This document shows, in pieces, positions 9,114 to 44,655 of a stretch of DNA of 64,000 nt (its first letter is position 1; each line of letters starts with the position of its first letter). Below the pieces are notes generated by a model. The model saw nothing but the letters and a program-made list of their open reading frames with translations, did no database searches and was not told the origin of the DNA. This stretch comes from Escherichia coli. GTDB lineage: Bacteria > Pseudomonadota > Gammaproteobacteria > Enterobacterales > Enterobacteriaceae. The stretch lies in assembly GCF_003019035.1 (NCBI RefSeq), contig NZ_CP027447.1. One strand, written 5' to 3'. The position numbers were made by a program, and so were the translations under genes.

Positions 9114-10121
9114 ATGAAGATAATCTGCAGATTATTATTGGCAATGGCATGTTTGTGTCTAGCAAACATATCCTGGGCTACTGTTTGTGCAAATAGTACT
9201 GGCGTAGCAGAAGATGAACACTATGATCTCTCAAATGTCTTTAATAGCACCAATAACCAGCTAGGCCAGATTGTTGTTTTACCGGAAAAATCCGGCTGGG
9301 TAGGTGTATCAGCAATTTGTCCACCCGGCACGCTGGTGAATTATACATACCGTAGTTATGTCACCAACTTTATTGTTCAGGAAACTATCGATAATTATAA
9401 ATATATGCAATTAAATGATTATCTATTAGGTGCGATGAGTCTGGTTGATAGCGTGATGGATATTCAATTCCCCCCGCAAAATTATATTCGTATGGGAACA
9501 GATCCTAACGTTTCGCAAAACCTTCCGTTCGGGGTGATGGATTCTCGTTTGATATTTCGTTTAAAGGTTATTCGTCCCTTTATTAACATGGTGGAGATCC
9601 CCAGACAGGTGATGTTTACCGTGTATGTGACATCAACGCCTAACGATCCGTTGGTTACACCTGTTTATACCATTAGTTTTGGTGGCCGGGTTGAAGTACC
9701 GCAAAACTGCGAATTAAATGCCGGGCAAATTGTTGAATTTGATTTTGGTGATATCGGCGCATCGTTATTTAGTGCGGCAGGGCCGGGGAATCGACCAGCT
9801 GGTGTCATGCCGCAAACCAAGAGCATTGCGATCAAATGTACGAATGTTGCTGCGCAGGCTTATTTAACAATGCGTCTGGAAGCCAGTGCCGTTTCTGGTC
9901 AGGCGATGGTGTCGGACAATCAGGATTTAGGTTTTATTGTGGCCGATCAGAACGATACGCCGATCACGCCTAACGATCTCAATAGCGTTATTCCTTTCCG
10001 TCTGGATGCAGCTGCGGCAGCCAATGTCACACTTCGCGCCTGGCCTATCAGTATTACCGGTCAAAAACCGACCGAAGGGCCGTTTAGCGCGCTGGGGTAT
10101 TTACGCGTCGATTATCAATGA
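9114..10121 (+). CDS. sfmH: fimbrial adhesin-like subunit SfmH
   Basis: 335-aa ORF with signal peptide after the usher gene; FimH-like position. Confidence 0.8.
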   Translation: MKIICRLLLAMACLCLANISWATVCANSTGVAEDEHYDLSNVFNSTNNQLGQIVVLPEKSGWVGVSAICPPGTLVNYTYRSYVTNFIVQETIDNYKYMQLNDYLLGAMSLVDSVMDIQFPPQNYIRMGTDPNVSQNLPFGVMDSRLIFRLKVIRPFINMVEIPRQVMFTVYVTSTPNDPLVTPVYTISFGGRVEVPQNCELNAGQIVEFDFGDIGASLFSAAGPGNRPAGVMPQTKSIAIKCTNVAAQAYLTMRLEASAVSGQAMVSDNQDLGFIVADQNDTPITPNDLNSVIPFRLDAAAAANVTLRAWPISITGQKPTEGPFSALGYLRVDYQ

Positions 10122-10131
10122 GGTACGGAGA

Positions 10132-10647
10132 ATGAGAAGAGTACTCTTTAGCTGTTTCTGCGGGCTACTGTGGAGTTCCAGTGGATGGGCAGTTGACCCT
10201 TTAGGAACGATTAATATCAATTTGCACGGTAACGTTGTTGATTTCTCCTGTACCGTAAACACAGCGGATAAGGATAAGACGGTAGATTTAGGCAGATGGC
10301 CTACGACACAATTACTGAGCGCTGGCGATACCACGGCACTCGTCCCTTTTAGCCTGCGGCTGGAGGGATGTCCTCCGGGTTCAGTTGCGATTTTATTTAC
10401 GGGAACGCCGGCATCTGATGCCAACCTGCTGGCTCTGGATGATCCCGCAATGGCACAAACCGTCGCCATCGAATTACGTAATAGCGATCGCTCCCGGCTC
10501 GCACTGGGGGAGGCGAGCTCGACTGAGGAAGTTGATGCAAATGGCAATGTCACACTAAACTTTTTTGCCAATTATCGAGCGTTAGCCAGCGGTGTTCAGC
10601 CTGGTGTGGCGAAAGCGGATGCGATATTTATGATCAATTATAATTAA
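10132..10647 (+). CDS. sfmF: fimbrial minor subunit SfmF
   Basis: 171-aa product starting MRRVLFSCFCGLLWSSSGWA (signal peptide); ATG at 10132 preceded by GGAG; track ORF 9937.. is an upstream in-frame extension. Confidence 0.85.
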   Translation: MRRVLFSCFCGLLWSSSGWAVDPLGTININLHGNVVDFSCTVNTADKDKTVDLGRWPTTQLLSAGDTTALVPFSLRLEGCPPGSVAILFTGTPASDANLLALDDPAMAQTVAIELRNSDRSRLALGEASSTEEVDANGNVTLNFFANYRALASGVQPGVAKADAIFMINYN

Positions 10648-10649
10648 TA

Positions 10650-11282
10650 TTATATTAATTCATATAATTTGGCGTAGTCGATAAGCTCTACAATTGAATG
10701 CAAACCTAGCTTGCCATAAATATTAGATTTATGTGCACTAACTGTTTTATTGCTAAGTAATAACTTATCGGCAATTTCTTTATTAGATAATCCGCTAACC
10801 AGATAACGTAATATGGTTACTTCACGATTAGATAGCACAGTGACCGTTGAACTATTCGTACTACATTTATTGCTTTTTATATAGTTGAGCGTTTCGCTGG
10901 GAAAAAAAGTGTATCCGGAGAGAATCATCTGAACGGCATGAAAAATATCATTCTGATCATTGCATTTACTGACAAAACCGTTAGCACCAGCTTGTATCGC
11001 TCTGCCAGCATAAAAGCATTCTGATTTCGATGATAAAAATAATACTTTCACTGTACTCTGAATTTGTTTGATCCTTTTTAGGAAGGTAAAACCGTCTGTA
11101 CCGGGCAAGTCTATATCCATAATGATTAAATCAACAGGACGGGTTCGGAGATAATCGATGGTTATGCGGTAATCATCCGTTTTCAGGACAATCTGCAATT
11201 CACTGTTTTTTTGCAACAGAACTTCAATAGACATTCTGATGATAGGATGAGTATCCATAATGATCACCGACGTTGGTTTCAT
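10650..11282 (-). CDS. fimZ: LuxR/NarL-family response regulator FimZ
   Basis: 210-aa product from MKPTSVIIMDTHPII; receiver domain plus C-terminal LuxR helix-turn-helix; contains AGA/AGG arginine codons. Confidence 0.9.
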   Translation of the reverse strand: MKPTSVIIMDTHPIIRMSIEVLLQKNSELQIVLKTDDYRITIDYLRTRPVDLIIMDIDLPGTDGFTFLKRIKQIQSTVKVLFLSSKSECFYAGRAIQAGANGFVSKCNDQNDIFHAVQMILSGYTFFPSETLNYIKSNKCSTNSSTVTVLSNREVTILRYLVSGLSNKEIADKLLLSNKTVSAHKSNIYGKLGLHSIVELIDYAKLYELI

Positions 11283-11464
11283 AGTTACCAGTCTCATTGG
11301 ATCGGACAATTTTCCGTTAGGGCGGTAAATTGTACTTGATACATGAAAATACGGGTTTTCCTGATTCAGACGCGCAGCGGTGTGCGTTTGTTTGCCGCTA
11401 TAACGAAATAAATCAGAAAATCAGACGCGGTCGTTCACTTGTTCAGCAACCAGATCAAAAGCCA

Positions 11465-11492
11465 TTGACTCAGCAAGGGTTGACCGTATAAT
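11465..11492 (+). promoter_or_regulatory. candidate sigma70 promoter for argU
   Basis: TTGACT, 16-bp spacer, TATAAT located about 30 bp upstream of the tRNA 5' end. Confidence 0.55.
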
Positions 11493-11523
11493 TCACGCGA
11501 TTACACCGCATTGCGGTATCAAC

Positions 11524-11600
11524 GCGCCCTTAGCTCAGTTGGATAGAGCAACGACCTTCTAAGTCGTGGGCCGCAGGTTCGAATCCTGCAGGGCGCGCCA
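11524..11600 (+). tRNA. argU: tRNA-Arg (anticodon UCU)
   Basis: 77-nt sequence GCGCCCTTAGCTCAGTTGGATAGAGCAACGACCTTCTAAGTCGTGGGCCGCAGGTTCGAATCCTGCAGGGCGCGCCA with TCT anticodon loop and encoded CCA end. Confidence 0.95.
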
Positions 11601-11644
11601 TTTCTTCTTCATTTAATCCCGTCTTATCCGTTCCGCTTTGCTCT

Positions 11645-12406
11645 TCACCACATCACTTTTTGTCGCTGTTTGGCGAGATAATTCAACGGTGTCAGGCCGT
11701 AAAACGCCTTAAAAACAGAGATAAAGTACGACGTGCTGCTATAGCCACATAATTGCGCCACCTGAGTGATATTTTTGTTATCCATCAATAACATCTGTAC
11801 GGCGTAACGCATACGACACTCTGTGACAATCTGGCTATAGCTGGTATTTTCGTTTTTTAATTTCTTTTTGAGCAGGCTGGGGCTTAAACATAGCGAACTG
11901 GCGACAATTCGCAGATTCCAGTAATGCTGAATATCGCTTTGAATAATGCGGCAGACGCTGTCGCGGACGCTGCTGCGTAAGATATACATCAGTAGGGCAA
12001 TAAACCGCGATTGCTCAAGAAAGTTAGACAATACGGTAAAAAGCAATGCGCGCGTCAACTCCGCTTCGCAGGGTTTGCTGGGTTGCTGCTTGCTGTGGTT
12101 GGCGGCTAGCCGGAACACTTCCGGTGTACGGCTATGACAAGCGATAACCGGGGTTGCCAGCCGCGACCAGGGCTTTATACAGGTTAAGTTCTTATTTAAA
12201 AACAACAGATAATCGTTGATGATGTTACGGTTGATGTGGGTGATTAATACGTGATTTAACGTTGAGAGTTCAATGACGTTATTGTTGCACGCGAAGGCGG
12301 CCAGGTAGTTTTTCGGAAGGGTAAACGTAGCATGGTTATTGACGCTTACCTCTACCTCTTTTTCGGTCAGGATCACCACGCAAGGTTCACTGCTGCTCAA
12401 TTGCAT
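11645..12406 (-). CDS. envY: AraC-family transcriptional regulator EnvY
   Basis: 253-aa ORF with C-terminal AraC-type helix-turn-helix; full-length match to recalled EnvY. Confidence 0.85.
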   Translation of the reverse strand: MQLSSSEPCVVILTEKEVEVSVNNHATFTLPKNYLAAFACNNNVIELSTLNHVLITHINRNIINDYLLFLNKNLTCIKPWSRLATPVIACHSRTPEVFRLAANHSKQQPSKPCEAELTRALLFTVLSNFLEQSRFIALLMYILRSSVRDSVCRIIQSDIQHYWNLRIVASSLCLSPSLLKKKLKNENTSYSQIVTECRMRYAVQMLLMDNKNITQVAQLCGYSSTSYFISVFKAFYGLTPLNYLAKQRQKVMW

Positions 12407-12588
12407 TTCGCACTCCTCAGATATCAGAAACTCCGCTCAAAGGATCTATGCTTCCTGCATGAGTGATCGGCCCGTTCGCCGATAACGATCTTCTTTCTTT
12501 AGCACGCTTTTTAGCAATTAATCTTGATGGAATTCTGACGAGAGCGAAAGAGGTAAGCCAGGTCGTACCCGACTTACCTGGAGGAGAT

Positions 12589-13479
12589 TTAATACTCGAG
12601 AATGCCGTGCGCGACGGGCAAATAGCGCAGAGAGAAATAGAGCGTGTCTTTACCGCAAGAGGAACGTTTCGCTAACAGCGAGGCAATTTCTGCGTCCGGT
12701 TTCGGTTTCGCTGTAAAGGTTTTGCCTTTGCCGGCGACAAACAGTTCATAAACAATGCCGCTTGCTGGGGCGGAGCTTTGGCAATCGGCGCTGGCCTGTA
12801 GATAACGTTCACGCTGTTCAGCGGTCAGTTTATCCACGCCGCTGCCATCCTGTACCCAGACATTAACGCCGGTTGCTTTAACGTGTTCCAGCAGTTGGCG
12901 ATAGCCATCGGGCGACATGTTTCCGGCGAAAAAACTACTGATATAAACCGGTTTTGCTGAAACATCGCTAATCAACCGCTGCGCGTTGTTTAACCATGTT
13001 AGCAAAGGCTGACGGGCGGCTTCGCTGCGCCAGTTCAGGTCGTCAATTTCCGCGCTGATGTACCAGCCATCCGGCGTTACGCCAGGTACGGCGCTCCATA
13101 ATCTGGCTTGCTGGAGATCGGCAGCCAGCAGGCGGTTAAGATAGCTTTCCAGCGCTGCAGACGACTGTTTCTGGTGCATAAAAAATTCCGGATCGGCATT
13201 CAGCCCGACAATCAGCTTCAGGCCAGCCTGTTGCGCAGCTGCGGCACGCTTAAACAATAACGCGTGCTGTTCTGGCTGGGTGAATGCATCGCCGTAACGA
13301 GTCCATTGCAAAACCAGGGTATCGAAGCCTTGCAAACGTAACTGACTCATCAGCCCCTGCCACTGGGTATCGGTAACCTGACTATCACGGTTTTGTGGTT
13401 GCCAGATAATACCTTTCATCGCAAAGGAAAAAGGGCTGACCAAAAGCAGTGTCAGCAATACGAAAATGAACTTACGCAT
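12589..13479 (-). CDS. ybcH: DUF4434-family protein YbcH
   Basis: 296-aa secreted protein, conserved neighbour directly downstream of nfrA. Confidence 0.85.
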   Translation of the reverse strand: MRKFIFVLLTLLLVSPFSFAMKGIIWQPQNRDSQVTDTQWQGLMSQLRLQGFDTLVLQWTRYGDAFTQPEQHALLFKRAAAAQQAGLKLIVGLNADPEFFMHQKQSSAALESYLNRLLAADLQQARLWSAVPGVTPDGWYISAEIDDLNWRSEAARQPLLTWLNNAQRLISDVSAKPVYISSFFAGNMSPDGYRQLLEHVKATGVNVWVQDGSGVDKLTAEQRERYLQASADCQSSAPASGIVYELFVAGKGKTFTAKPKPDAEIASLLAKRSSCGKDTLYFSLRYLPVAHGILEY

Positions 13480-16452
13480 TTACCAGTGCACTCCAATGGT
13501 GAGAAACGCATTGTTGCGCTCTCCGTTACGTTGATTAATCGCCTTAAAGGTATGTTGATACTCGACGCCGAGACTGACTTTGTGCGGCCAGGCGTCGTAG
13601 TGCGTCTCGCCGGTCCAGATATTCCAGCGGACCCCGACACCGCCAAGCTGCGCGCCCTGAGTGCCTTTATCACGATAGCCGTTGTCCTGAACGTGAGCGT
13701 AAGGCTCAATAGTCTGTCCGTTAGCTACCTTCTGATGCCAGCTGACGCGATAATCTGCCGTCCACGCCTGAATATCCTGGCGGATATATTGCGCTGCATC
13801 GAGGTACAGGTTTTGGGCAAACCAGCCTGAACCGTTCGGGTGCCATTCGTCGCTGTATTTGCCGCCATTAAAGAATGAGGCGCTGGCGCGCAGCATGGTA
13901 TCGGATGCGCCATTTTGCCCGTTCAGCGGCAACTGCTGTTCGACGGCGAGGAAAAAGATCTGATCGCGCAGCGGCTTCCAGCGCAGACCGGTGCCGGACA
14001 TCGGATTTTTCACCGGCATCATCACCCCGTTTTCTCCAGTATCGGCAAATACACGGCTGTAAACCGAGAGCAGGTCGCCTTCCAGCAGCATATTGCGTCC
14101 GATGCGATACTCGGCTTCCAGTTGCCCGTAGCTACGATAGCTTTTCCCTGGCGCTGCGCCGCCGACATTATTGTTAGCGGTACTCATTGCGCCGGAACGC
14201 AAGCCGATAGAAGAATCGAAACTGAACGTCCAGCGGCGACCGACCTCCTCATGCAGACGGCGGAAATTGAAGCGTTGCTGATTTTGCTCTGGGGTCAGTG
14301 GGGTTATCAGCGCCTGATTATCAATGTCATCAATCACCAGCCGGGCGTAGTGCTGCGTCGCAGGCATGTCATCCAGACGCTGGTTCACGTAGGCCAGTTG
14401 TCGGATAAGTGCCGGATCGTCCGGTAGCCCTTTATGCGCCTGTTCGAGCATTTCCCGCGACTGTGCGATATCACCGCTATCCCACAAGGCGTAACCGAGC
14501 GCTGCCTGGGTGTTGCTATTATTCGGTTCCAGTTCCAGCGCGGCGCGCAAATCACTCACCGCCGCCGGGACATTATGACGTTGGCGATAAATTGTCGCCC
14601 GCGCAACGTAAGCGTTGGCAGAAGGCGCAATATTGATTGAGCGCGTGAGATCGTTCAGTGCGAGTTCCGGCTGACCAGGAATGTAACGTTGCGCATGCAG
14701 CCACCAGTAGAGGGCATTGTTTCCCAGCCCACGTTGTTCTGCCTGCTGAAGCCAGCGATCGCGAGCCGCACCATTTCCTGCCGCCTGGGCGGTATTGGCA
14801 GCAGCAAGCAGATCCTCATTGCTCATGTCGTGAAGACTGATTTTCTGCCAGGCCGCCAGTGCGGTGGCGTAGTCCTCAACCTGATACGCCTGATAGGCTA
14901 CCGCACGATGTTGCCAGGCGTTCGGTTGTCGTTGTTCGGCCTGAAGCCATGCATACAACGCCACACCGGGTAGCGTGTCCCGATAACACTTTGCCAGACG
15001 GTTCCAGGCGGCGGCATCGTAGGAAGGCGACATATCGCCCAGCAAGCGAACTATTGCCGGGCAATTATCTGCAATACCCGGCAACTGACTTTGCCACTGA
15101 CGTTGCTCCGCCAGCGGTAAAGGTTTCGATAAAATCGCCACCTTCGCCGGCGTTGCCAGGTAAGGATGACTTTCCAGCAGAGACGCCAGTCGCGCCATTA
15201 ACGTCTGGCTGACACGCGCATCGCCCTGGAAAGGATAGCGTTGCAGCAATAAATCGGCAGCTTCGCGTGACTGCTCGTTCTGCATCAGTTGCCAGGTCAG
15301 TTGATCCAGGCGGGTAAGATTTGCCGGTTCTTGCTGATACAGCAATCGTGCCAGACGCAGAGCTTCAGCCTTGTTATGGGTCGCTACGCTAACGGTATAA
15401 CGCTCCTCAAGCATTTCATTGGCGGGGAGGGTGGCGAGCAGTTTTTGCGCTGCGTCGTACTGACCTTCTTTTAACAGCACCGGTAGCGTCGCGCCAACAA
15501 CATACTGGCGGTTATCGGCAAACTGTACCGTATAATTCGCCAACGCCTGAACGGGGTTGACGCTGTATTTAGATAACAGATAGAGCCAACTTTTCTCTTG
15601 TGCGTCCGTGGTAAACAGCGGCTTATTTTCAATGAGATAATGCTGGAGGCGCGCTTTTTCGCCACGATAAGCCAGCGCGGTCGCGTAAGTAATATATGAC
15701 TGAGGATCGGTGAAGATCCCCTGTGATTGCAGCGCCAGGATCCGATCATCCAGCTGCGCGGCAAGAAGCACGTCAAACCACTGACGGCGTTCTGCCGCGC
15801 TTAATGTGTTCTGCTGGCGTGCTTCATTATATAGCGTATCTGCCTGGGACCATTGTTTCAGGTAGATTGCGCGTTGCAGCAGATCGGTTCGCAACGTTTT
15901 TCCTTCCGGCGATGCAGCAAACGTCGCATCGTTTAGTTGCGCTCTGGCGACAGGTAATTGTGCCAGCCGCAGGGCATTCTGCCCGACTTCACTGCGACAA
16001 CGCAGGGTCGGCGCAGCGTCGCACGCTTTTTGCTGGGCAAGCAGTTCTTCAACAGTCGTAACGCTTTTCACTTCAACTGGAATAGCCGCCAGACTGCGCT
16101 CAAGTCGGGCATCTCCTGGGTGACGTTTCAGTTGATCCTCAAGCAACAGCCGCGCCCGGTCATCATGACCAAAATGGCGATAGGCTTCCGCAAGGTATAA
16201 AGTCAGCGGAATATTATCCGGCACCTGCTGGTGTATATATTCAAATTCGCGGATGGCGGTTGCTTCGTCGTTATTTTTCTGTGCCTTCAGCGCCTTGTCG
16301 AGACGGGGATAAATAACGAAATGGCGATAATCGCTCAGCCCCAGCTCTTCTGCGCTGGTGCCGATATTGTCTGCGAGTGCGCTGGTACTCAATAAAGACG
16401 TCAGCAGTAAACCAGACCATCCGATGACGCGATTAAGGTTATTCTCCTTCAT
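13480..16452 (-). CDS. nfrA: bacteriophage N4 adsorption protein A (outer-membrane TPR protein)
   Basis: 990-aa product from MKENNLNRVIGWSG... with signal peptide; start trimmed from the 997-aa track ORF. Confidence 0.9.
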   Translation of the reverse strand: MKENNLNRVIGWSGLLLTSLLSTSALADNIGTSAEELGLSDYRHFVIYPRLDKALKAQKNNDEATAIREFEYIHQQVPDNIPLTLYLAEAYRHFGHDDRARLLLEDQLKRHPGDARLERSLAAIPVEVKSVTTVEELLAQQKACDAAPTLRCRSEVGQNALRLAQLPVARAQLNDATFAASPEGKTLRTDLLQRAIYLKQWSQADTLYNEARQQNTLSAAERRQWFDVLLAAQLDDRILALQSQGIFTDPQSYITYATALAYRGEKARLQHYLIENKPLFTTDAQEKSWLYLLSKYSVNPVQALANYTVQFADNRQYVVGATLPVLLKEGQYDAAQKLLATLPANEMLEERYTVSVATHNKAEALRLARLLYQQEPANLTRLDQLTWQLMQNEQSREAADLLLQRYPFQGDARVSQTLMARLASLLESHPYLATPAKVAILSKPLPLAEQRQWQSQLPGIADNCPAIVRLLGDMSPSYDAAAWNRLAKCYRDTLPGVALYAWLQAEQRQPNAWQHRAVAYQAYQVEDYATALAAWQKISLHDMSNEDLLAAANTAQAAGNGAARDRWLQQAEQRGLGNNALYWWLHAQRYIPGQPELALNDLTRSINIAPSANAYVARATIYRQRHNVPAAVSDLRAALELEPNNSNTQAALGYALWDSGDIAQSREMLEQAHKGLPDDPALIRQLAYVNQRLDDMPATQHYARLVIDDIDNQALITPLTPEQNQQRFNFRRLHEEVGRRWTFSFDSSIGLRSGAMSTANNNVGGAAPGKSYRSYGQLEAEYRIGRNMLLEGDLLSVYSRVFADTGENGVMMPVKNPMSGTGLRWKPLRDQIFFLAVEQQLPLNGQNGASDTMLRASASFFNGGKYSDEWHPNGSGWFAQNLYLDAAQYIRQDIQAWTADYRVSWHQKVANGQTIEPYAHVQDNGYRDKGTQGAQLGGVGVRWNIWTGETHYDAWPHKVSLGVEYQHTFKAINQRNGERNNAFLTIGVHW

Positions 16453-18676
16453 TTTCGGACTCCAGTTGCGCAACCTTTTCTGTGTTTAAACCTGCTTTGA
16501 GTAATAGTGATTGCATCGAAACTTGTAATTCGCGTTGAATTGTCAGAACGCGATCCAACGTTTCCTGGCTGATAACGCCTTCGGTGACCAAAAACTTGCC
16601 GAGCGGCAGAGAACTGCGTTCATGGCGCAATAACAACACGTTAATTGCTGAACGATTAATATGACCGAGCGTGGTCAGTATTTCGGCGAACAGGAACTGA
16701 TGCGGCACATATTGCCGCCAGATTTCACCGGCCTGCTGTTCCGTGAGCCACTGATGCTGAACCGCATTGTACAACATTGCCCGCGGATCGTGACCGCGTC
16801 GGCGCGCATACCAGTGGCGTAACCCCGTGACAATTTGTCCCCGCAGAACAATGACGTAACGCACTTTGCGTCCGACTTTACGCGTCAGGGCCGCCAGCGA
16901 AACCGGGTCAATACCATCTTCACTGCCGACAATTAACTCATCATTTTCCAGACGCAGCGGCAGCACTGCATAATGCAGCGCCACGGAGGCCGGCATCTCG
17001 GCAATCAGTGATGAAGGGATCTGCCAGGCGTCGATCGACTCCCACGCCACGCCGTTTTGCTCTGCCAGCGCCTGTGCCAGCTGCTCGGCGCTAATCAGCC
17101 CCTGCATCAGCATTGAACCGCCAAGGCGTAGACCTTCGACGCGATTACGCAGTGCTGTATCGAGTTGTTCTTCAGTGATGACCTGATTTTCCAGCAGAAT
17201 TTGACCTAACGGGCGCAACGAGCGGGTATCGCCAGTCACGCTGGGGAAGTCATGCGTTGTTTTATCCCACGCCACGCGACGTGGATCGCCGTGTTGAAGT
17301 ACCTGTTTTAACGCGCGCCAGTTGGCCATGAAGTTAATCAGGTTGCCCCAGAAAAGACGCAGGACAGATAGTAGCCCCTGCGTCAGGCCGTAGTAGCCAG
17401 TGACGAAAATCACCCGCTGCACGATGCGGTTAACCATCAAGCCAAAGTTTAGCCACAGCAGGGTCATTAACCATGCGCTGCCGCTGAAAATAGAAAGGAA
17501 ATGCCAGGCATCGGGCCACAAACTTTCATACGCCAGTAACAGCAAAAGCTGGATCATCACCAGCATCGCGAGGAAGCTGACAAAGTTACTGATTGCCCCT
17601 TTGCGGTCGCGCCAGAGAAAGTAGTTCAGCGTCAGGCTGGAGGTCCATTTGTGGGTTTTAAAGCCCTGGAAAACAATGCCGATGATCCAGCGAGATTTTT
17701 GTCGAACCGCCGTCGAAAAGGTATCGGGGAAATATTCGCGCACGCAGATCATGTTTGACGTCCGCGCGTGCTGTAAAAATTTACGCTGCTCGCGTTCTTT
17801 GGCTTCGTCCACCACCGGAAAACGGACAAAAATTTCCGTCATACCTTTTTCTTTCAGGCGGAAACCAATGTCGTAATCTTCAGTAAGACTCTGCACGTCG
17901 AAAGCAATACCGTCACCGTCAGCTAACAGTGCGGTCACGGCGCGGCGGCTGAAACAAGTACCGACACCTGCGCTGGGCACCTGTCCGGCGAGGGCTTCAC
18001 GCACCGGAACATCTTTGCCATGCAGTTCTGAAAACTCATCAATGTAAGTCATGCTGGTGAAGTGCGTCCATTCGCGTTCGAATGGGTATACCGGGATCTG
18101 AATCAGATCTTTACGCTCGACCAGATAGTTGAACAGACGCAATTCCATCGGTGAAATTACGTCTTCGGCGTCATGCAGAATAAAACCAGCAAAAGCGAAA
18201 TTGGCGCTACGCTCAAACTGGGTGATGGCGTCCAGCACGTTGTTCAGGCAGTCGGCTTTGCTGGTGGGGCCAGGACGCGCGCAGACTACCTTATGCACGT
18301 TTGGGAAGCGAGCGCACACTTCGTCAACATCACGCTGAGTATCGGGGTCGTTGGGGTAGGTGCCAACAAAGATATGATAGTTTTCATAGTCGAGCGTGGT
18401 CGCCGCCAGCTCGGCCATATTGCCGATGACGCCCGTTTCATTCCACGCCGGAACCATAATCGCTAACGGTTTTTCATCTGGTTTATACAGTTCGCGGTAA
18501 CTCATTCGCGGGTAGCGGCGATAAACACTCAACTTGCGTTTAATGCGGCGTACCCAGTAGACGACATCAATAAAAAAATCGTCCAGCCCGCTGATGAACA
18601 TGATGACCGCTAACGTTATCGCGATTACTTTTAAGCCATATAGCCAGGTTGCAAAAACATCAAGAAGCCAGTCCAC
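16439..18676 (-). CDS. nfrB: bacteriophage N4 adsorption protein B (inner-membrane glycosyltransferase)
   Basis: 745-aa ORF, membrane N-terminus plus GT2-like domain; overlaps the nfrA start (operon). Confidence 0.92.
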   Translation of the reverse strand: MDWLLDVFATWLYGLKVIAITLAVIMFISGLDDFFIDVVYWVRRIKRKLSVYRRYPRMSYRELYKPDEKPLAIMVPAWNETGVIGNMAELAATTLDYENYHIFVGTYPNDPDTQRDVDEVCARFPNVHKVVCARPGPTSKADCLNNVLDAITQFERSANFAFAGFILHDAEDVISPMELRLFNYLVERKDLIQIPVYPFEREWTHFTSMTYIDEFSELHGKDVPVREALAGQVPSAGVGTCFSRRAVTALLADGDGIAFDVQSLTEDYDIGFRLKEKGMTEIFVRFPVVDEAKEREQRKFLQHARTSNMICVREYFPDTFSTAVRQKSRWIIGIVFQGFKTHKWTSSLTLNYFLWRDRKGAISNFVSFLAMLVMIQLLLLLAYESLWPDAWHFLSIFSGSAWLMTLLWLNFGLMVNRIVQRVIFVTGYYGLTQGLLSVLRLFWGNLINFMANWRALKQVLQHGDPRRVAWDKTTHDFPSVTGDTRSLRPLGQILLENQVITEEQLDTALRNRVEGLRLGGSMLMQGLISAEQLAQALAEQNGVAWESIDAWQIPSSLIAEMPASVALHYAVLPLRLENDELIVGSEDGIDPVSLAALTRKVGRKVRYVIVLRGQIVTGLRHWYARRRGHDPRAMLYNAVQHQWLTEQQAGEIWRQYVPHQFLFAEILTTLGHINRSAINVLLLRHERSSLPLGKFLVTEGVISQETLDRVLTIQRELQVSMQSLLLKAGLNTEKVAQLESENEGE

Positions 18677-18855
18677 ACAAAAACCTTACATTAACGCTGG
18701 TTATGTTTAGGGTGGCGTATATTAAAGTTTTTTATGAATTGTGACAGCTTTTTATCATTAATAGGTAGGATTATTGCGGCACGTTATTTTTACACTGGTT
18801 ATAAAAGTTGCCGATTGCGTAGAATGTAGACAAAAGCGTGGTGTCAAGGAGGGGA

Positions 18856-20160
18856 GGGTAACGCAGGGAAAGATTACGAAAGCCCGCTCCCCGCAAGGAC
18901 TGACGCCAGATAGTTTCTGTCCATGGCTGCTTTTCGCATCTTACGTCTTAACCCTGCCTTGAATACCTTATCATTCGTCAAAATATTAATAGCGATGTGC
19001 CGTATCCCTGAAAATAATTCTGCTGCATTTCCTCTTCTTATTTTGCAGTCGTCTTCATTCATTACCACGTCCAGACGCCAGTGCAGCTTATTCTCCACGT
19101 GCCAGTGGTTTCGGATTGCTGTGGCGAACTTCTCTGCGGTTAAATCAGCAGAACTGATATAATATCTGACCGTCATTTCGGGCTCTTTCTTTTGTTCTGC
19201 TATTATTGACCGAAAGGAGACTGCCACGCATAATTTCTTCAGACCTTTCCATTCAAACGTGAAATCAATAAGTTCATCAGGGACATCGCAAACAATGTGA
19301 AGACGGATTTCTTCTCTGCCGTGACTCTTTTCACTCATTGCGTAACTGTCATGCTCTGGATTATTTAATTCTTTCAGCGGAAATTTTTCCTCGAAGGCTT
19401 TATTTAGCCGCCCCTGGTTTCCTTTTACAGCGAATAAATAATCACCTCCCTGTTTTTGTATCTTCTCTGCAATATCTTTCTGGCAACCCATCGCATCAGT
19501 TGTGATGATTTTTCCTTTAATATCCAGCATGTTAAGAAGTTCTTGGATAGCTGTAATCTCATTGGATTTCTCATCCGTCCTGATCTGTCCGATGACCAGA
19601 CTATGCATTGTTGAGAACGCACTAATGACATGAATCGCTCCCTTGCGGCGACTCTTGTCATAAGAGTGCCGGAGCGTTTTTCCATCAATTGCAATGACGC
19701 CTTTATCATCTGAAGAATGGCAGTCACGCATCCAGTTAATAAAGCACTCGTGAAATTTTGCAGGACTGATACAGGATACAACTCTGGCAATGGTATCGTG
19801 AACAGGAATACCATTTTCAAAATCACCATATTGCTTCAAAAAATCGAGATGTGTTTCCCCAAAATCCTCTATATCTTCCCAGCCTTCTGCACCAGAAATA
19901 ACGGCACAAATAGTCAACAGTAGAATATCCGACAATTTATGTTCCACTTTCCAGGCTTGTCTGTACTCGGGAATAACAGAAATATGTTCTATCAATTTTT
20001 TAAGTACCATTTTGTTCTCCTTAATTATGTAAGGAGTATTTGATCATGTATAAGCAATAAAAAACAGCTTCAGGTAATGAGGAATATCTCAATTTTTAAA
20101 CATAAAATGCGAATTATTTAGTACAAAAAAGCAGCGTTACGTGATCTTTCCCTGTGTAAT
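18856..20160 (-). mobile_element. H-repeat / ISAs1-family insertion sequence (about 1.3 kb)
   Basis: Contains the 378-aa H-repeat-associated transposase; imperfect terminal inverted repeats centred on CAGGGAAAGAT (18861-18878 versus reverse complement of 20139-20156, 15/17 identical); boundaries approximate to about 5 bp. Confidence 0.75.
18874..20010 (-). CDS. ISAs1-family (H-repeat-associated, YhhI-like) transposase
   Basis: 378-aa [53 protein letters not shown]...; near-identical to the recalled E. coli H-rpt protein family. Confidence 0.9.
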
Positions 20161-20834
20161 CCCCCAGCTAAATCATGAACTTTTTGAGCCATTTTACTTA
20201 ATTCAGGGCAGGCTCCTAAACCTAATGGATCTGTGAAGCAACACGGATTCAGCACATAACCATAAGTGTTTAGTCCACCCAATACACCCAGGGGGTCACT
20301 CACCAGATACATCCCGGTCTCCGGCTCGTAGTACCGGAACCGGTTATAGCACAGCCCTGACTCCGCATCCCGCCACTGCCCCGCATACAGCAGACCGGGG
20401 TCCGCTTCTGCGTCTCGCTCCCCGCGCGGGTCCGGGTAGTCCCTGTCTGCGCTGACGCTGAGTGCCAGCCCCCACAGGCTGGTCTGCTCCGCACGCCACA
20501 CCACGTTACCCTGACTGTTAAAGAGCATCACCGGGCGGCCTGTCAGGTCGCTTACCGCATGGCTGGTCCGCGTCACCCACTGCGGGGCCACGGACGGGTG
20601 CGGCTGCCGTACCCGGCTGAACTGCTGGCTTATCAGCTCAAAGCCGTTAAACACCAGGTACCGCACACTGTACAGTTTATCATCGCGGTATTCCCGGATT
20701 TCCGCAATAGTGTCGCCGTCCCACAGATATGTGATGCGGAGGGCTTTTTGTTTGCAGCGTTTCTCTGTCCGTCTGCCACTGGCGTCGTGGCAGTATTCCC
20801 ACTGCTCACCCCGGGCGCTGCGGTAGCCGATCAC
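20118..20834 (-). pseudogene. orphan rhs C-terminal fragment (last about 206 aa of Rhs core plus a truncated alternative tip)
   Basis: Homologous to residues about 1260-1470 of the upstream Rhs through the PxxxxDPxGL core end (DPLGL); no upstream ORF or canonical start; only about 19 native residues follow DPLGL before the reading frame runs into the IS terminal repeat. Confidence 0.7.
20217..20834. repeat. direct repeat copy 1 (rhs core 3' end, orphan copy)
   Basis: About 620 bp, high-identity copy of 21694-22311 visible in both nucleotide and protein alignment. Confidence 0.75.
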
Positions 20835-20863
20835 GGCTGTCGTGGCGGAACTTTATCTCTTTT

Positions 20864-21253
20864 TTATTTAATCCAGTAAGCTAATCTCTCACCAATCTTC
20901 AAATTTTCTCTTTTGTAATAAAATACAGTATCAAAGTTAATGGATATTTTTTTCGCAATAACTTTGAATTTCAATTCAAATTCCGAATAAAACTCTAATA
21001 CTAACATTTCACGAGCATTGTCAGTGCAACTTGATAGCTTAATAAACTCCTCATTAAGATCGCATGACCAGTCCATAACACCGCTAATATAGCATGGCGT
21101 GTCTATTATTATTTCCAGTGTGTGATAGTAAGAAAGGTCATCACTCCCGGAAATAATCAAGCGATTATGTTCATAAAGAAAAACTGAAAAATCCAACCAA
21201 CTTTCTTTCCAATTATGGTGCTTTATATCATTAATTATGTTTTGCTCACTCAT
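20864..21253 (-). CDS. candidate cognate immunity protein for the Rhs C-terminal toxin
   Basis: 129-aa AT-rich ORF; its ATG overlaps the rhs TGA stop in a 4-bp ATGA overlap; positional analogy to rhsI genes; no family recognised from sequence. Confidence 0.6.
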   Translation of the reverse strand: MSEQNIINDIKHHNWKESWLDFSVFLYEHNRLIISGSDDLSYYHTLEIIIDTPCYISGVMDWSCDLNEEFIKLSSCTDNAREMLVLEFYSEFELKFKVIAKKISINFDTVFYYKRENLKIGERLAYWIK

Positions 21254-24200
21254 GGAATAGTTCCTGTAGGCAATGGTATATGAGTATCATTTGCAGCTCC
21301 TGGATTATAATTCGGACTTTTAGTTTTCAAATCAGATGTATGATGCCAACTGCCATCAGGAGAACCATACTCCCAACCATAGCCTTGATTAGTCGCAGGA
21401 TTTGTTCCACTTTGGCTTCTACCAATCCTATATATGGGGCCATTGGCAGAATTACTCCCTGCTGGAGCAGTAGGGTTTACATCATGAGCCCTTACTTCAT
21501 ATTTATAATTTCCGACGGTGAATTTTTCTTTAAATTTTATAGGGTAGTTATGCCCAGACAAGCCTTGCCGATGTAAAGCATAATTTAACACATCCTGCGG
21601 TGAGGTATTTTTAATTGCTTGATGCGCTTGTGCTGCTGTCATACCTTGAGAACGATTGTATTTATACCAATCATACATCACAGGACATATAGCTAATCCC
21701 AAAGGATCAACATACCCCAGCGGATTAGGCACATACCGGTAAGTCTGCTCACCCCCCAGCAACCCCAGTGGATCACTCACCAGGTACATCCCGGTTTCCG
21801 GCTCGTAATACCGGAACCGGTTATAGCACAGCCCCGATTCCGCATCCTGCCACTGCCCCGCATACAGCAGGCCGGGGTCGGCTTCCGGGTCCAGCTCCCC
21901 GCGCGGGTCCGGGTAGCCGGTGTCTGCGGGCAGGCTGAGTGCCAGCCCCCACAGGCTGGTCTGCCCCGGTCGCCAGACGGTTTTACCTTCACTGTTAAAG
22001 AGCACCAGCGGACGGCCCGTCAGGTCGCTCACCGCATGATTCGTTCGCGTCACCCACTGCGGGGCCACGGACGGATGCGGCTGCCGTACCCGGCTGAACT
22101 GCTGACTCAGCAGCTCAAAGCCGTTAAACACCAGGTGCCGTACGCTGTACAGTTTATCATCCCGGTATTCCCGCATTTCCGCAATACTGTCGCCGTCCCA
22201 CAGATACGTAAAACGGATTTTCTTCCGGTCGCAGCGTTTTTCCGTCCGCCTGCCGCTGGCGTCGTGGCGGTATTCCCACTGCTCACCCTGTGCGCTGCAA
22301 TACCCGGTCAGCTGGTCCCGGCTGTCCCACCGGAACCGCTCTGTTTCCGGGCGGTAGCCGTCACGGTGTCTGGTGCGGCTGACCATCCGGCCTGCGGCGT
22401 CATAGCTGTAGTCTGTGTTTCCGGTCTGTTTCAGCCGGTGGCCGCGCTGATACATGTCAGTATCCACGCTTATCCGGTGCCTGCCCGCCGACTGCGCCTT
22501 CAGGTAGCCACAACTGTCATAGCCATAGGACTCATCGCCTTCGCCATAGCCCAGCCCGGTGCCTGAGGCTGTCACCGCCGTGACCTGGCCGTTCCGGTCC
22601 AGCCGGTACTCCCGCCGTGTTTCCCGTCCGTAGTCTTCCCGGCTGGTGACAGCCGACATATTGCCCGCGCTGTCGTAACGGTACTCCCGCACCAGTGAGG
22701 GGAGCAGTCCGCCCCATGTGGCTTCCGCCGGGAAAAGTCCGGCGCGCTGGCTGGTAAGCTGACCGGCTGCATTCCAGCCCTGCTCACAGGCAAAACCCCG
22801 GTTACTGTGCCGGAGCACTTCACGTCCTGCCTCATCACGGCTGAACGTCAGCGTCTCATCCCCCGGCAGGATAACCTCCGTCAGTTCTCCGGCGGCGTTG
22901 TAGCGGTAGGTGGTTTTCAGCAGGGATTCACCGGGGTGTCTGTCGCGTTCATCTTCCGGTGGCAGGATACAGCGGATGACGGTGTGTTCATCGGGGTGGT
23001 GGTATTCAATGGCCCGTCGGCCCTGAGTGGTGACATTCACCCGCCCGCGTTCGTCATAGCCGGTGCGCTGTGATGTACCGTCCGGGCTGAAGATACCCGT
23101 CAGCCTGCCGGATTTGTCATAGGCATACTGCGTTTTGCCTTCCGGCGAGATGACTTCTGCCAGGCGGCCTGCGGCGTCCCGGCTGTAGAGGATAGTTTCC
23201 TCCAGGCCGTTAACCCTGGCGGTACAAAGGCCATCGGCGTCATAGCGGTAACGCCAGACCACGCCGCCCCAGTCACGCTCTTCCGTCACCCGTCCACAGT
23301 TGTCCAGAATATAACGGTATGACTCGCCCTGCGGATTGATGACTTCTGTCAGTTGCAGCGTGTCTTTATCGTAGCGGTACTGCCAGCGGTGGCCTTCACC
23401 GTCCGTTCGCGCCACCGGCAAATCGAACGGGCCGTATTCCATCGTCCAGACAACGCCGTTGCCGTCCGTCCAGGCCAGCAGGTTGCCGTGGCGGTCATAG
23501 CGAAATCCTTCCGCGCCGGTGCCAGTGCGTTCAAGGCCGCTCAGTTTATGGTGCTGCTGCCACCGTAACCGCACTGACTGACCGCCGGGGCCGCGCATCT
23601 TCACCGGCAGGTCGTGACCGCTGTATTCGGTGTGGTGTTCACGGCCCATCACGTCGGTGAGTGTTTCCGGCCGGTTGTGGTGGTCGTACTCTATGCCCAG
23701 ACGCCGTTCATCCTGGCGGAATATCCCCGACAGCAGCCCCTGCGGCGTGTACGCCAGCCGGGTCTCTTCGCCCTGTGGCGACACCAGACTTACCGGCAGG
23801 CCGCGTTCATCACACTGCTGCGTCCACATCTGCCCGGCAGGGTCGGTGATGTTGCTGAGCAGGCCGCGCTCATCATAGCAGTACTGCCACTCCGCACCGT
23901 CTGCCGCCGTGTAACGGCTTAACTGACCGTGTGCGGCGTTGTATTCAAACTTCTCCACCCGCCCGGCAGGGGAGTGGCGGGCCAGCAGGTGATGGAATTC
24001 ATCCCATTCATACATGGTGGTGCTGCCGTCCGGCGCTGCTTCCCGCAGAATATTGCCGTCAGGATCATAGTAATAACGGTGAATGCCCTTGCCGTCCGTC
24101 ACGGTGGTGCAGCCGTCACCATAGTCCAGCGTGGCGTTGTAATAGCCCTCCGCCCCGGTGACGGTCACGCACCGGCCCTGTGCATCGTAGGTGAAACGGC

Positions 24201-26103
24201 TCCACGTCTGGTCGTTATCGGACCAGCGGATGATCCGGTCCGCAGCGTCGTACTCATAAAACAGGTGGTAGTCCAGCCGCGCATCCGCTTCTGTCAGCCG
24301 CCCCCGCGCATCCTGTTCGTAGGTCGCCAGCATCTGTATGCCGTTATCCGTACGGTGAATGGCTTTCAGGTAGCCGCTGGCATGGTACGTCAGTTTAAGC
24401 CGGATCCCGTCGGTGTGACTGACACCCATGATGCGGTACTGGCTGTCGCGCTCAAACGTGATGCGGTTGCTGGCGGTGTCGCTCATCCCGCCCAGCATGT
24501 ACATCCGGTCTGCGGGGCTGTGTGCCAGACGGTCATCGCAGGTATCGTCAGTCACCGGGTGGCGCAGGCGCATTCCCGGAAAGGCGTCATAAAAGAAGCG
24601 GCTGCTCAGTGCATCACGGTCGAACAGCTCCAGGTAATCGTCGCGGCGGCGCAGAATGTACTGGGCGTGATACGGGTTAACCGCCGTATCACTGTCACCG
24701 TCGAAGGCAAATCTCAGCGTGGTTCCCTGGCTGATGATATCCACCCGGTTTCCCTGTTCACGCACCCAGGCGTATTCGCTCCAGGAGTCGCTCCAGCCCA
24801 CGCCCGTCAGACCATGCAGCGGCAGTACAGAACTGTGGAAACGGGTGAAGGAGAGGGGGAGTGTCTGGCCCAGCGTAAAGTCGGTACGTTCGTCGCAGTA
24901 TGCGCCGGTTACCGGATCGACAGGATCTGTTACCCATCTGATGACTTTATTGGCAATACTTTTTAACGACTTACCTGTTTTCCCCAGCAACGCGCCGAGC
25001 TTTGCCCCCAGCAGCTTCCCGCTTTTCCCCAGCAGGTTTCCCAGTTTGCCGAGTTTCGCCAGATTCCCCAGTTTTCCCAGCAGTCCCGCGGGCGGCAGAA
25101 GATAGCTGGCTATCGTTATTCCCCCCAGGATCATTCTCTGCCACGGCGGGAACTCCGGCTGGATATCCAGATAGGTCACCTGTTCACCGCCAATAAAGAC
25201 GTCCGGCGAACCTTCCACGATTGCCGCGCTGCACTCCAGTTTGTCCCCTTTGCGTGCGGCAGTCTGATTGTTGATAAAGACGTTGCTGCTGCCCTGGGCT
25301 ATCCTCGGTGGTTTGTTCTCCTTGTCGCAGAGCGCCGTGTCCTCACCGGCTTCCGGGAAATCCACGTCTTTTTTGATTTCGCCACGCCCGCCCACCATGG
25401 TGGCAAACTCCATTAATACCGGACCGGCGGGAAACAGAAGCGATGCGCCGGCGCTGACGCGATCCATAATACCGGCATTGCTGTCCGTCAGGGTGATAAC
25501 AGCGTTCCCCCAGGCCTTCGCCAGTGGTACTGCTTTTTCCGCTGCCGATTCAAGCAGGTCAGTGGCAATATCACCCCATGAGGGTTCCCCCTGTGGTGGA
25601 GAGGGTATTGCTTCAGTCAGGGGAGGAGGGGGAAGGGTGACGGCGGCCCTGGCAGCGGGCTTTCCGTTAATGTTTACATTTTTAGAACCAGTATTGATGG
25701 CCCCGTCCGTGTCACAAAAACTGTTTATCCATGATTCAAGCTGGTTCTGTTTCTCCTCCACATAATCACTCGCCTTATAGCTGGCATACATCAGCGCAGG
25801 CACCAGAACCAGCGCATAAGGGCCGGTGGCACAGGCGGCCATAATCAGGCAACCTTCTGCGATGGTCACTATCGCCCCCAGCACGGCCCCTGCCAGCGCC
25901 CCCAAAAAACTCTTGTGCTGAATTTCATCGCCCAGCCTGGCTGCGGGGGGGCCAGACTTTTTTGATGCCAACATCTGTGCAATGGCTTTGTCGTTGGCTG
26001 CCCGTTTCATCTGGCTGGCGACCATCGCCTGCTGTGACAGCATTCGCATTGCCAGCGTACCGCCTGCGGTCGCTCCCTGTGGCCCGCCTGGTCCTTCACT
26101 CAT
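21250..26103 (-). CDS. rhs: prePAAR/PAAR-domain Rhs-family polymorphic toxin (T6SS effector) with variable C-terminal toxin tip
   Basis: 1617-aa ORF: N-terminal AARLGDEIQH (prePAAR-like AARxxDxxxH), hydrophobic helices, PAAR-like segment (ARKGDKLECSAAIVEGSPDVFIGG), long YD/Rhs repeat region, core terminating at DPLGL, then a 147-aa low-GC tip. Confidence 0.9.
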   Translation of the reverse strand: MSEGPGGPQGATAGGTLAMRMLSQQAMVASQMKRAANDKAIAQMLASKKSGPPAARLGDEIQHKSFLGALAGAVLGAIVTIAEGCLIMAACATGPYALVLVPALMYASYKASDYVEEKQNQLESWINSFCDTDGAINTGSKNVNINGKPAARAAVTLPPPPLTEAIPSPPQGEPSWGDIATDLLESAAEKAVPLAKAWGNAVITLTDSNAGIMDRVSAGASLLFPAGPVLMEFATMVGGRGEIKKDVDFPEAGEDTALCDKENKPPRIAQGSSNVFINNQTAARKGDKLECSAAIVEGSPDVFIGGEQVTYLDIQPEFPPWQRMILGGITIASYLLPPAGLLGKLGNLAKLGKLGNLLGKSGKLLGAKLGALLGKTGKSLKSIANKVIRWVTDPVDPVTGAYCDERTDFTLGQTLPLSFTRFHSSVLPLHGLTGVGWSDSWSEYAWVREQGNRVDIISQGTTLRFAFDGDSDTAVNPYHAQYILRRRDDYLELFDRDALSSRFFYDAFPGMRLRHPVTDDTCDDRLAHSPADRMYMLGGMSDTASNRITFERDSQYRIMGVSHTDGIRLKLTYHASGYLKAIHRTDNGIQMLATYEQDARGRLTEADARLDYHLFYEYDAADRIIRWSDNDQTWSRFTYDAQGRCVTVTGAEGYYNATLDYGDGCTTVTDGKGIHRYYYDPDGNILREAAPDGSTTMYEWDEFHHLLARHSPAGRVEKFEYNAAHGQLSRYTAADGAEWQYCYDERGLLSNITDPAGQMWTQQCDERGLPVSLVSPQGEETRLAYTPQGLLSGIFRQDERRLGIEYDHHNRPETLTDVMGREHHTEYSGHDLPVKMRGPGGQSVRLRWQQHHKLSGLERTGTGAEGFRYDRHGNLLAWTDGNGVVWTMEYGPFDLPVARTDGEGHRWQYRYDKDTLQLTEVINPQGESYRYILDNCGRVTEERDWGGVVWRYRYDADGLCTARVNGLEETILYSRDAAGRLAEVISPEGKTQYAYDKSGRLTGIFSPDGTSQRTGYDERGRVNVTTQGRRAIEYHHPDEHTVIRCILPPEDERDRHPGESLLKTTYRYNAAGELTEVILPGDETLTFSRDEAGREVLRHSNRGFACEQGWNAAGQLTSQRAGLFPAEATWGGLLPSLVREYRYDSAGNMSAVTSREDYGRETRREYRLDRNGQVTAVTASGTGLGYGEGDESYGYDSCGYLKAQSAGRHRISVDTDMYQRGHRLKQTGNTDYSYDAAGRMVSRTRHRDGYRPETERFRWDSRDQLTGYCSAQGEQWEYRHDASGRRTEKRCDRKKIRFTYLWDGDSIAEMREYRDDKLYSVRHLVFNGFELLSQQFSRVRQPHPSVAPQWVTRTNHAVSDLTGRPLVLFNSEGKTVWRPGQTSLWGLALSLPADTGYPDPRGELDPEADPGLLYAGQWQDAESGLCYNRFRYYEPETGMYLVSDPLGLLGGEQTYRYVPNPLGYVDPLGLAICPVMYDWYKYNRSQGMTAAQAHQAIKNTSPQDVLNYALHRQGLSGHNYPIKFKEKFTVGNYKYEVRAHDVNPTAPAGSNSANGPIYRIGRSQSGTNPATNQGYGWEYGSPDGSWHHTSDLKTKSPNYNPGAANDTHIPLPTGTIP
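21253..21693 (-). other. Rhs C-terminal toxin domain (147 aa after DPLGL); candidate WHH/HNH-type nuclease
   Basis: Abrupt drop in GC content after the DPLGL junction; motif GSWHHTSD...NYNPGAAN...THIP near the C-terminus resembles the His-His...Asn...His arrangement of HNH/EndoVII-fold toxin domains. Confidence 0.45.
21694..22311. repeat. direct repeat copy 2 (rhs core 3' end, main gene)
   Basis: Homologous to 20217-20834; substrate for homologous recombination that would swap toxin tips. Confidence 0.75.
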
Positions 26104-26122
26104 GTGTTATCCCTCGTTTATG

Positions 26123-26584
26123 TCAGCGCGGCTGGTCCTTTTGGATGTCATTCTCCGGTGGCAACGGGGTGAAGCTCTTTATCACCTCCAGCAGCATCGT
26201 CTTTTGACTGTTCTTCAGGGATAAGGAGGTGCTGAAAGTGAAGGTCAGCAGCGTATCTCCACGCCGCTGGAATACGGCTATCTGGCTAATCCGCCCCTGA
26301 TTCCCTTCATCTTCCGGACCGTTCCAGGAATAATCCAGCAGCCAGGCCGGGGCCTCTGCCAGAGTGATTTCCCGGCAGGCATGTTCGGTGTACCCATCAA
26401 GTTTGCCCTGGTACAGCGCCAGCGTTTCCTGGTACAGCTCTGGTGTCAGGGTTCCCTGTGGAACGGCTTCGCGGGTAATGACCAGGTTGATGCCACTGTT
26501 ATCTGTGGACACCAGGACCTGCATTGACTGATCCTGCCATTGAGACGGCAGTTGAATGTGGCCTTCATTAAAAGTGAACTGCAT
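26123..26584 (-). CDS. DUF1795 / Eag-family effector-associated chaperone
   Basis: 153-aa ORF between vgrG and the prePAAR-Rhs gene, tightly spaced; size and position typical of EagR-type chaperones. Confidence 0.75.
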   Translation of the reverse strand: MQFTFNEGHIQLPSQWQDQSMQVLVSTDNSGINLVITREAVPQGTLTPELYQETLALYQGKLDGYTEHACREITLAEAPAWLLDYSWNGPEDEGNQGRISQIAVFQRRGDTLLTFTFSTSLSLKNSQKTMLLEVIKSFTPLPPENDIQKDQPR

Positions 26585-26611
26585 AAAATACTCCCTGTTA
26601 ATCTGAGTGAA

Positions 26612-28513: not shown

Positions 28514-29249
28514 AGCAACCTCCAGTAAAATGAATAATGATCCGTACCGTACAACTGCGGATAATGTGATAAGCGGGACGACTTCAGACGTTATTAGGGA
28601 AGGAACAGAAAATGCTATGGTTATGTGAGAATTTTGTTTAAATATTACTTTACAGAAACGGGTGTCTGTTCAGTCAAAAAAATAATCACAAGCTCAACCT
28701 CTTGTTTCTTGGCGTTATTCAGGACAGGTACGCATATCACAACGAGTAACAAAAACGCAAAGTTAAACCAATATTCATAATATATTTTTATTCACAGCAA
28801 TAAATAATCCAATTAACATTATTAAAATGAATGATTGCATAAGAAATATATGCTACCGCTCCACCCTGATAACATGATCTGCACATTGCACATCTTAACG
28901 TTGTTAAATACTGGCTCAATAGTGGATATTTTAAATTAGGAATTTATCAAATTCACTTGATAAATAGATTGAGTGAATAATATAACAATTAATGATGATT
29001 AATCGCGATTAAATTATTCATTGCTTTATATGATAGATGGCTTGTTTATAACGATGAAAATTTAGAAAGGGCATTGTGATCTACAATTGGAAGAAACACA
29101 GATTTAACTAAGTTTCATATACAAACATCTCGTGAAACTTTGAAAAATAAAAGCCTTCGATATTTCATATGTTTAATAAGTTTTTCTCTAATTTGTTGAT
29201 CAACAATACCAGGAGGTGATGCACCACGCCCTGAATTTGAACTTAATAA

Positions 29250-43181: not shown

Positions 43182-43623
43182 TTATGTTGGCGTTTTCTAT
43201 TCAGTATAGAAGTGGGAGCGACTGGGCGAGATGCGGAAGTTCTGGAATATTTCTTTTTTTGGTGATGGTGAACTGATTGTGAGTGAAGCAATTTAGCTAC
43301 TTTTTCAATGTGGCAAGTTATGGCACAGCTGGCTGGTGGCGAAGAATTTTGACGATTGAGGCATGCAGAAAAAACGGGCTCAGCTTCAGTTGATCAAATG
43401 GGGAGTGAGAAGTCCGAAACAGGATTCACTGTATAAATAAACAGCTATTTTGCTGAGGAAGCGTAAGATAACGGCGGGTGCCTGAAGCTTTCCGGTTTCA
43501 GGTTAACTCTGAGGTCTGGAAAGATGAAGCCCCAGGACGATATTTCTATCAACCCTGGGGCTGCCACTCCAAACCCGAACAATTTGGATGGTAGTCCCTT
43601 CTTCGCATGGAGGCAATATAAAC

Positions 43624-43776
43624 ATGCTGACGAAATATGCCCTTGTGGCAGTCATAGTGCTGTGTTTAACGGTGCTGGGATTTACGCTTCTGGTCGGCGA
43701 CTCGCTGTGTGAGTTTACGGTGAAGGAACGTAATATTGAGTTTAAGGCTGTTCTCGCTTACGAACCGAAGAAGTAG
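43624..43776 (+). CDS. hokE: Hok-family type I toxin HokE
   Basis: 50-aa product [50 protein letters not shown]; an overlapping upstream frame (43524..43712) is consistent with a mok-like leader ORF. Confidence 0.85.
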
Positions 43777-44555: not shown

Positions 44556-44655
44556 GCCTGATGCGCTACGCTTATCAGGCCTACGTGGTCCTGCAATATA
44601 TTGAATTGGCAAGATTTTTGTAGGCCGGATAAGGCGTTCACGCCGCATCCGGCGT
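44556..44655. repeat. REP/BIME element (two inverted REP units) between entD and fepA
   Basis: gcctgatgcgctacgcttatcaggcctac and gtaggccggataaggcgttcacgccgcatccggc, canonical REP palindromes. Confidence 0.8.

Follow-up and report, generated by a model that had tools for sequence, protein, structure and literature searches.

Positions 11556-11602 of the window, the 64,000-nucleotide stretch of Escherichia coli DNA analysed here (contig NZ_CP027447.1), very probably form an unoccupied attachment site (attB) for lambdoid phages of the DLP12/IntD-integrase type. The assignment is based on sequence comparison with occupied chromosomes and free phages, and it places the site across the 3' end of an intact argU tRNA gene that is followed, after a short chromosomal spacer, by the convergent gene envY. 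An empty argU attB is already described in the literature, and it is very common and ordinary. The features of the locus are as follows.

10650-11282, minus strand: fimZ, left neighbour of argU (tblastn and NCBIfam)
11465-11492, plus strand: promoter-like site upstream of argU, TTGACT / 16-nt spacer / TATAAT (11 of 12 consensus matches)
11524-11600, plus strand: argU, tRNA-Arg(UCU), intact (ARAGORN, Rfam RF00005, K-12 alignment)
11556-11602, plus strand: putative attB core (O) of 47 bp, also present in K-12 attL, K-12 attR and phage attP
11603-11644, no strand assigned: B' arm, the argU-envY spacer, of chromosomal origin (alignment)
11645-12406, minus strand: envY, AraC-family regulator, convergent with argU (253-aa open reading frame, K-12 identity, RefSeq)
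12589-13479, minus strand: ybcH, right-hand context, followed by nfrA and nfrB (NCBIfam PRK09936, 520 bits)

argU and its chromosomal neighbours

The only tRNA gene detected by ARAGORN in the 64-kb window was argU, encoding tRNA-Arg with the anticodon TCT, and this call was backed by the Rfam tRNA family (72.1 bits; gathering score, 29). In the alignments, the gene was identical to K-12 argU base for base over its whole length. A promoter-like site of the same composition, TTGACT-16-TATAAT, lies upstream of argU in K-12 at an offset equal to that in the window, and we infer that it acts as the argU promoter.

The stop codon of envY occupies 11645-11647, so that the converging genes are separated by 44 bp (11601-11644); the sequence-only reading had placed the tRNA 3' end at 11600 and the envY stop at 11645, with a gap of about 45 bp, which agrees with these values. 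The predicted product is identical to K-12 EnvY (b0566) at 251 of 253 residues (99.2%), the differences being I77V and K111R, and identical DNA in strain IMT16316 is annotated as envY by RefSeq. Among the NCBIfam models, matches were obtained to the AraC-family proteins GadX, YdeO and AraC, all under their equivalog cutoffs. Length, near-identity and the right-hand neighbours ybcH and nfrA all agree in indicating that this open reading frame is the orthologue of K-12 EnvY. EnvY is a putative thermoregulator of porins; what was seen here is its AraC-family homology.

To the left, K-12 FimZ aligned by tblastn with 210 of 210 residues identical at 11282-10653, and the FimZ equivalog model scored 447 bits (cutoff 271), which puts argU in its conserved place on the chromosome, after the sfm operon and fimZ. 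On the right-hand side, the ybcH product was 98% identical to K-12 YbcH. The adjoining nfrA gene is intact in the window (997-aa open reading frame, 13480-16473, minus strand; NCBIfam PRK09782, 1891 bits). In IMT16316, a strain 99.6% identical to the window over the first 24 kb, the orthologue has an internal stop and is annotated as a pseudogene.

The attachment core and its arms

The window was aligned with K-12 attL, K-12 attR and the free phages Kati and Lambda_2G7b. A single invariant block of 47 bp, CTTCTAAGTCGTGGGCCGCAGGTTCGAATCCTGCAGGGCGCGCCATT, was common to all five and corresponds to window positions 11556-11602. As read from the tRNA secondary structure, the block starts at the first base of the anticodon loop, and it ends 2 nt beyond the CCA at the tRNA 3' end, thus overlapping the 3' 45 nt of argU. 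Its start also agrees with that of the annotated DLP12 feature in K-12 (564755). A 47-bp duplication at argU has been reported for DLP12 and for PP_SE11-1, a prophage of 50.4 kb at argU in strain SE11 (PMC6379469, PMC2608844).

Outside the core, the five sequences fell into complementary groups. Left of it, the 5' half of the tRNA (arm B) is present in the window and attL and is replaced by phage sequence (arm P) in attR and the phages; on the right-hand side, the window and attR continue through the chromosomal spacer into envY (arm B'), and attL and the phages lead toward the integrase gene (arm P'). The layouts are B-O-B' for the window, B-O-P' for K-12 attL, P-O-B' for K-12 attR and P-O-P' for Kati and 2G7b. 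This exchange of arms is as expected for attB, attP, attL and attR, and reproduces the classic pattern in which B-O-B' and P-O-P' give B-O-P' ... P-O-B'.

Comparison with the occupied site of K-12

In K-12 MG1655 (NC_000913.3), argU lies at 564723-564799, the cryptic prophage DLP12 at 564755-586056 and envY at 586147-586908, which bears out the gene order given in the sequence-only reading, with DLP12 between argU and envY. Attachment of DLP12 at argU goes back to Lindsey, Mullin & Walker 1989, as cited in PMC6379469. The K-12 site has the same tRNA gene, the same 47-bp core and the same outer flanks as the window (fimZ-argU on the left, envY-ybcH-nfrA on the right). It differs in being recombined and occupied, with attL and attR enclosing the 21.3-kb cryptic prophage, which begins with intD, continues through lambdoid genes disrupted by IS elements and ends in appY and ompT; the window represents the unrecombined attB.

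By megablast, positions 1-1802 of the K-12 stretch matched window 9802-11602, and positions 23055-29001 matched window 11553-17498. The left and right flank matches share nothing in the window but the att core, some 50 bp at the tRNA 3' end, and the window is thus the sequence expected for an unrecombined site. Together, the five-way alignment and this mapping of the K-12 flanks support the proposal, made from the sequence alone, that the chromosome carries an empty argU attachment site.

A prophage-free junction could also be the scar of an illegitimate or homologous deletion that took out a prophage together with some flanking DNA. Deletions are known at the locus: strain A13 has lost envY, BL21-AI matches the argU side only, and argU is truncated in WB61. 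In the window, however, the tRNA is complete, the core is matched at 47 of 47 positions, no phage-derived base is present, and the B' arm continues into an intact envY as it does to the right of K-12 attR. From 11603 onward there is no P or P' sequence, and in comparison with other empty sites no chromosomal bases are missing. The only homologous deletion that would fit is one between the 47-bp att repeats, which would be indistinguishable from excision, and we regard a deletion scar as very improbable.

Search for prophage remnants in the window

The core is single-copy in the window: no second copy was found in the 64 kb with 30-mer and 17-mer fragments, allowing three mismatches. A repeat search of 11300-12000 with a 6-nt seed returned just chance-level pairs of 9-19 nt, and a partial direct repeat of the tRNA 3' end was found neither in 11601-11650 nor in the whole window. 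With K-12 queries, tblastn gave no match to IntD or OmpT in the window (best E > 3), and AppY matched its paralogue EnvY alone. DLP12 DNA had no megablast match anywhere in the window. These searches uphold the claim that integrase and att-repeat remnants are missing here, and the absence of a DLP12-type prophage and of ompT is to be read as a property of the 64-kb window, not of the whole genome.

The window and the annotated IMT16316 genome are collinear from purE to cstA, and the IMT16316 annotation contains no phage genes in that span. The composition profile around the argU site showed just the ordinary low GC of fimZ and intergenic DNA. A prophage remnant or att scar at argU was considered and rejected, given the lack of a repeat, IntD or OmpT and a spacer that is B' and not P': positions 11603-11644 align, with a few SNPs and a 1-bp indel, to the DNA right of K-12 attR and not to phage P'.

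Phages and prophages that use the site

Seventeen records of the phage collection contained the core, 14 from Escherichia phages and three from Salmonella phages. The carriers include Kati, Turner, 2G7b, ev243 and the PhiR series, with 47 of 47 positions matched in Kati, Turner and PhiR68_2; Salmonella SEN22 and BIS08P22 matched at 94%. In 2G7b and Kati, the core lies between an omptin gene (ompT) and an integrase gene of 1164 nt, and the arms of Kati matched the inner flanks of K-12 at 99.7% on the attR side (appY-ompT) and 99.3% on the attL side (intD-xis). By these sequence matches, phages using the argU site circulate today. Their attP shares the common core with the window and has phage arms as flanks, and is accordingly the partner site and not the same site.

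The gene order in the free phages is appY-ompT-attP-int. Since ompT and appY are carried by free phages inside the att bounds, they are phage cargo and not separate genes. The sequence-only description of the K-12 locus as DLP12 "and associated genes" is therefore right about the prophage, while appY and ompT belong to the att-bounded element and are not additional to it. AppY, the phage-borne regulator, was found to be a paralogue of EnvY (44% identity over 96 aa; window 11669-11956, minus strand), and lysogens would thus have two related AraC-family genes flanking ompT, one from the phage and one chromosomal.

Full-length argU prophages or "PAI-argU" islands share the insertion point, the 47-nt duplication and ompT at the right end (PMC2608844, PMC7545054); they are occupied sites of various sizes, including PP_SE11-1 (50.4 kb), IHE3034 (50 kb), S88 (38 kb) and strain 2016C-3878, whereas the window is without any such DNA. 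NMEC strains have been described with argU-linked ompT islands (PMC7545054). The occupants examined ranged from 3.5-kb remnants up to prophages of about 50 kb.

Frequency of empty and occupied sites

Population counts were made on 5,426 complete E. coli genomes.

Uninterrupted argU-envY junction: 2,521 genomes (46.5%)
argU followed by a DLP12-type integrase: 2,875 genomes (53%)
K-12-type ompT-attR-envY junction: 1,592 genomes (29%)

An empty argU site is thus not unusual, being found in 46% of complete E. coli genomes. Subtraction of the third count from the second gives about 1,283 genomes (about 24%) that keep the integrase side without the K-12-type junction on the envY side. The empty and integrase-adjacent states cover all but about 30 genomes, so that the argU "hotspot" is served essentially by one integrase type in this collection. 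The counts, 46% empty, 29% with both junctions and about 24% with the integrase side only, provide a reference for the dynamics of the argU site. In a sample of evenly spaced rows, eight of 40 (about one fifth of the sampled genomes) matched the argU side only, with the left flank at about 94% identity.

The B-O-B' arrangement of the window is the one shared with the 2,521 genomes, among them O157:H7 EDL933, LY180, C122, IMT16316 and SCU-301. Other empty E. coli junctions were 98.4-100% identical to the window and differed by SNPs and spacer indels of 1-2 bp only. The closest relative, SCU-301, has an empty junction and aligned over 24 kb as one unbroken segment at 99.9% identity. This recurrence bears on the concern that a real prophage had been dropped or collapsed in assembly. 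Prophage-rich regions are sometimes misassembled, which lends the idea general but no specific support; against it, 2,521 independent complete genomes, including SCU-301 and O157:H7 EDL933, show the same junction, and the likelihood of an artefact is next to negligible.

A scan of 100,044 species genomes for the junction of the tRNA end with the B' arm gave one match, in a 3.5-kb contig of a "Collinsella sp." MAG (JAIJJM010000316.1, locus L008). There, 155 bp at one end matched at 96.8% identity, corresponding to the att core and the 3' end of envY, and the rest was unmatched; the contig is most likely an attR junction from E. coli that was binned wrongly.

True remnants at argU, from which the window differs in having none, are exemplified by A13 and WB61. 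A13 illustrates the genomes with the integrase side only, and is the one genome inspected among those that match the argU side alone. Fragments of int and of a tail-fibre gene lie there with a methyltransferase gene and ompT ahead of ybcH, and envY and sfm-fimZ are absent. In this strain (locus L004, 11834-15735), folD is followed almost directly by argU, and the short int...ompT remnant is fused to ybcH.

History of the empty site

WB61, a very close relative, is 99.1-99.7% identical to the window over the same region, shares its Rhs island and carries a decayed lambdoid remnant of about 7 kb at argU (NZ_CP020025.1, locus L009, 3025-10151), with lambdoid tail genes and no int or ompT, followed by an intact attR core and envY. 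Its argU is cut off after the equivalent of window position 11573, and ARAGORN reported no tRNA there. If real, this arrangement leaves WB61 without argU at the native locus; Ns near attR make the assembly quality doubtful.

One account of the window is that a DLP12-type prophage was formerly present in the lineage and was excised precisely, rather than never having been there. Occupancy varies among very close relatives, as the remnant in WB61 illustrates, DLP12 excision in K-12 is reported to be inducible (PMC4632033), and site-specific excision would regenerate exactly the observed sequence. A never-occupied site, however, would give an identical sequence, and the window fits both histories equally. 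The WB61 remnant, moreover, records the lysogenisation of a sister lineage and not of the window's own, and with int missing and argU truncated it is itself incapable of precise excision. We regard precise curing as less likely than not. Because excision leaves no scar, a never-used site and a cured one would look alike in the window, and the identification of 11556-11602 as an empty attB stands for either history.

Proposed integration at argU

The recombination chemistry, the crossover point and the present-day competence of the argU site are proposed here from established knowledge of integration at tRNA genes. A tyrosine integrase of the IntD type would recombine attP with attB inside the shared core, with the crossover probably close to the anticodon loop, at the start of the identity block. 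The phage-borne copy would restore the tRNA gene at attL, beside int, and a 3' fragment of the tRNA would remain at attR, beside ompT and envY. With no such event in the present chromosome, argU runs directly into native DNA, with the convergent envY 44 bp on. Site-specific excision would be scarless. The attB in the window is clean and unoccupied, and presumably usable.

The attB of phage lambda sits between gal and bio, with an intergenic core of 15 bp. The argU site resembles it in having a core shared with attP, a tyrosine integrase and predicted scarless excision; it differs in that the identity block is 47 bp, as opposed to 15 bp, and lies within a tRNA gene, which the phage copy would restore, and not in intergenic DNA.

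For the strain, the finding matters little beyond annotation, as one that lacks a DLP12-family prophage at argU. It is consequently without the ompT copy, appY and other cargo that such an element brings to the locus, and lambdoid phages that carry ompT and are in circulation would still find a perfect target there.

Possible transcription from argU into envY

No terminator-like site was found in the argU-envY spacer, nor was one found immediately downstream of argU in K-12. The predicted RNA fold of the spacer was not significant (z = 0.95), and an Rfam search of the spacer, at gathering thresholds and at E <= 1, returned the tRNA alone and one spurious antisense match. Given the strong promoter predicted for argU, the convergence over 44 bp and the lack of a recognisable intrinsic terminator, read-through onto envY could occur. 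It is, even so, improbable that such read-through acts on envY in empty strains, by antisense transcription or collision interference, with occupancy altering envY expression. If it did, integration would move envY 21-50 kb off and put ompT beside it, envY expression would change, and occupancy would have a regulatory effect beyond gene cargo.

Other features of the window

Relative to strains 2016C-3878 and A13, the window contains an insertion of about 10.4 kb between nfrB and cusS (18819-29268). At this position IMT16316 is annotated with an ISAs1 transposase and, besides an Rhs fragment, a 4.85-kb gene for an Rhs core protein, with a small open reading frame downstream of it; a DcrB-like protein and a VgrG are annotated as well. 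The island, which resembles a type VI secretion effector island, is the only mobile DNA in the purE-cstA span of that strain.

Two further RNA families were matched in Rfam searches of the window, the sok antitoxin RNA (79 bits; 43476-43632, plus strand) and the sRNA ES036 (42 bits; 44577-44618, minus strand), and both adjoin the hokE toxin gene annotated in IMT16316.
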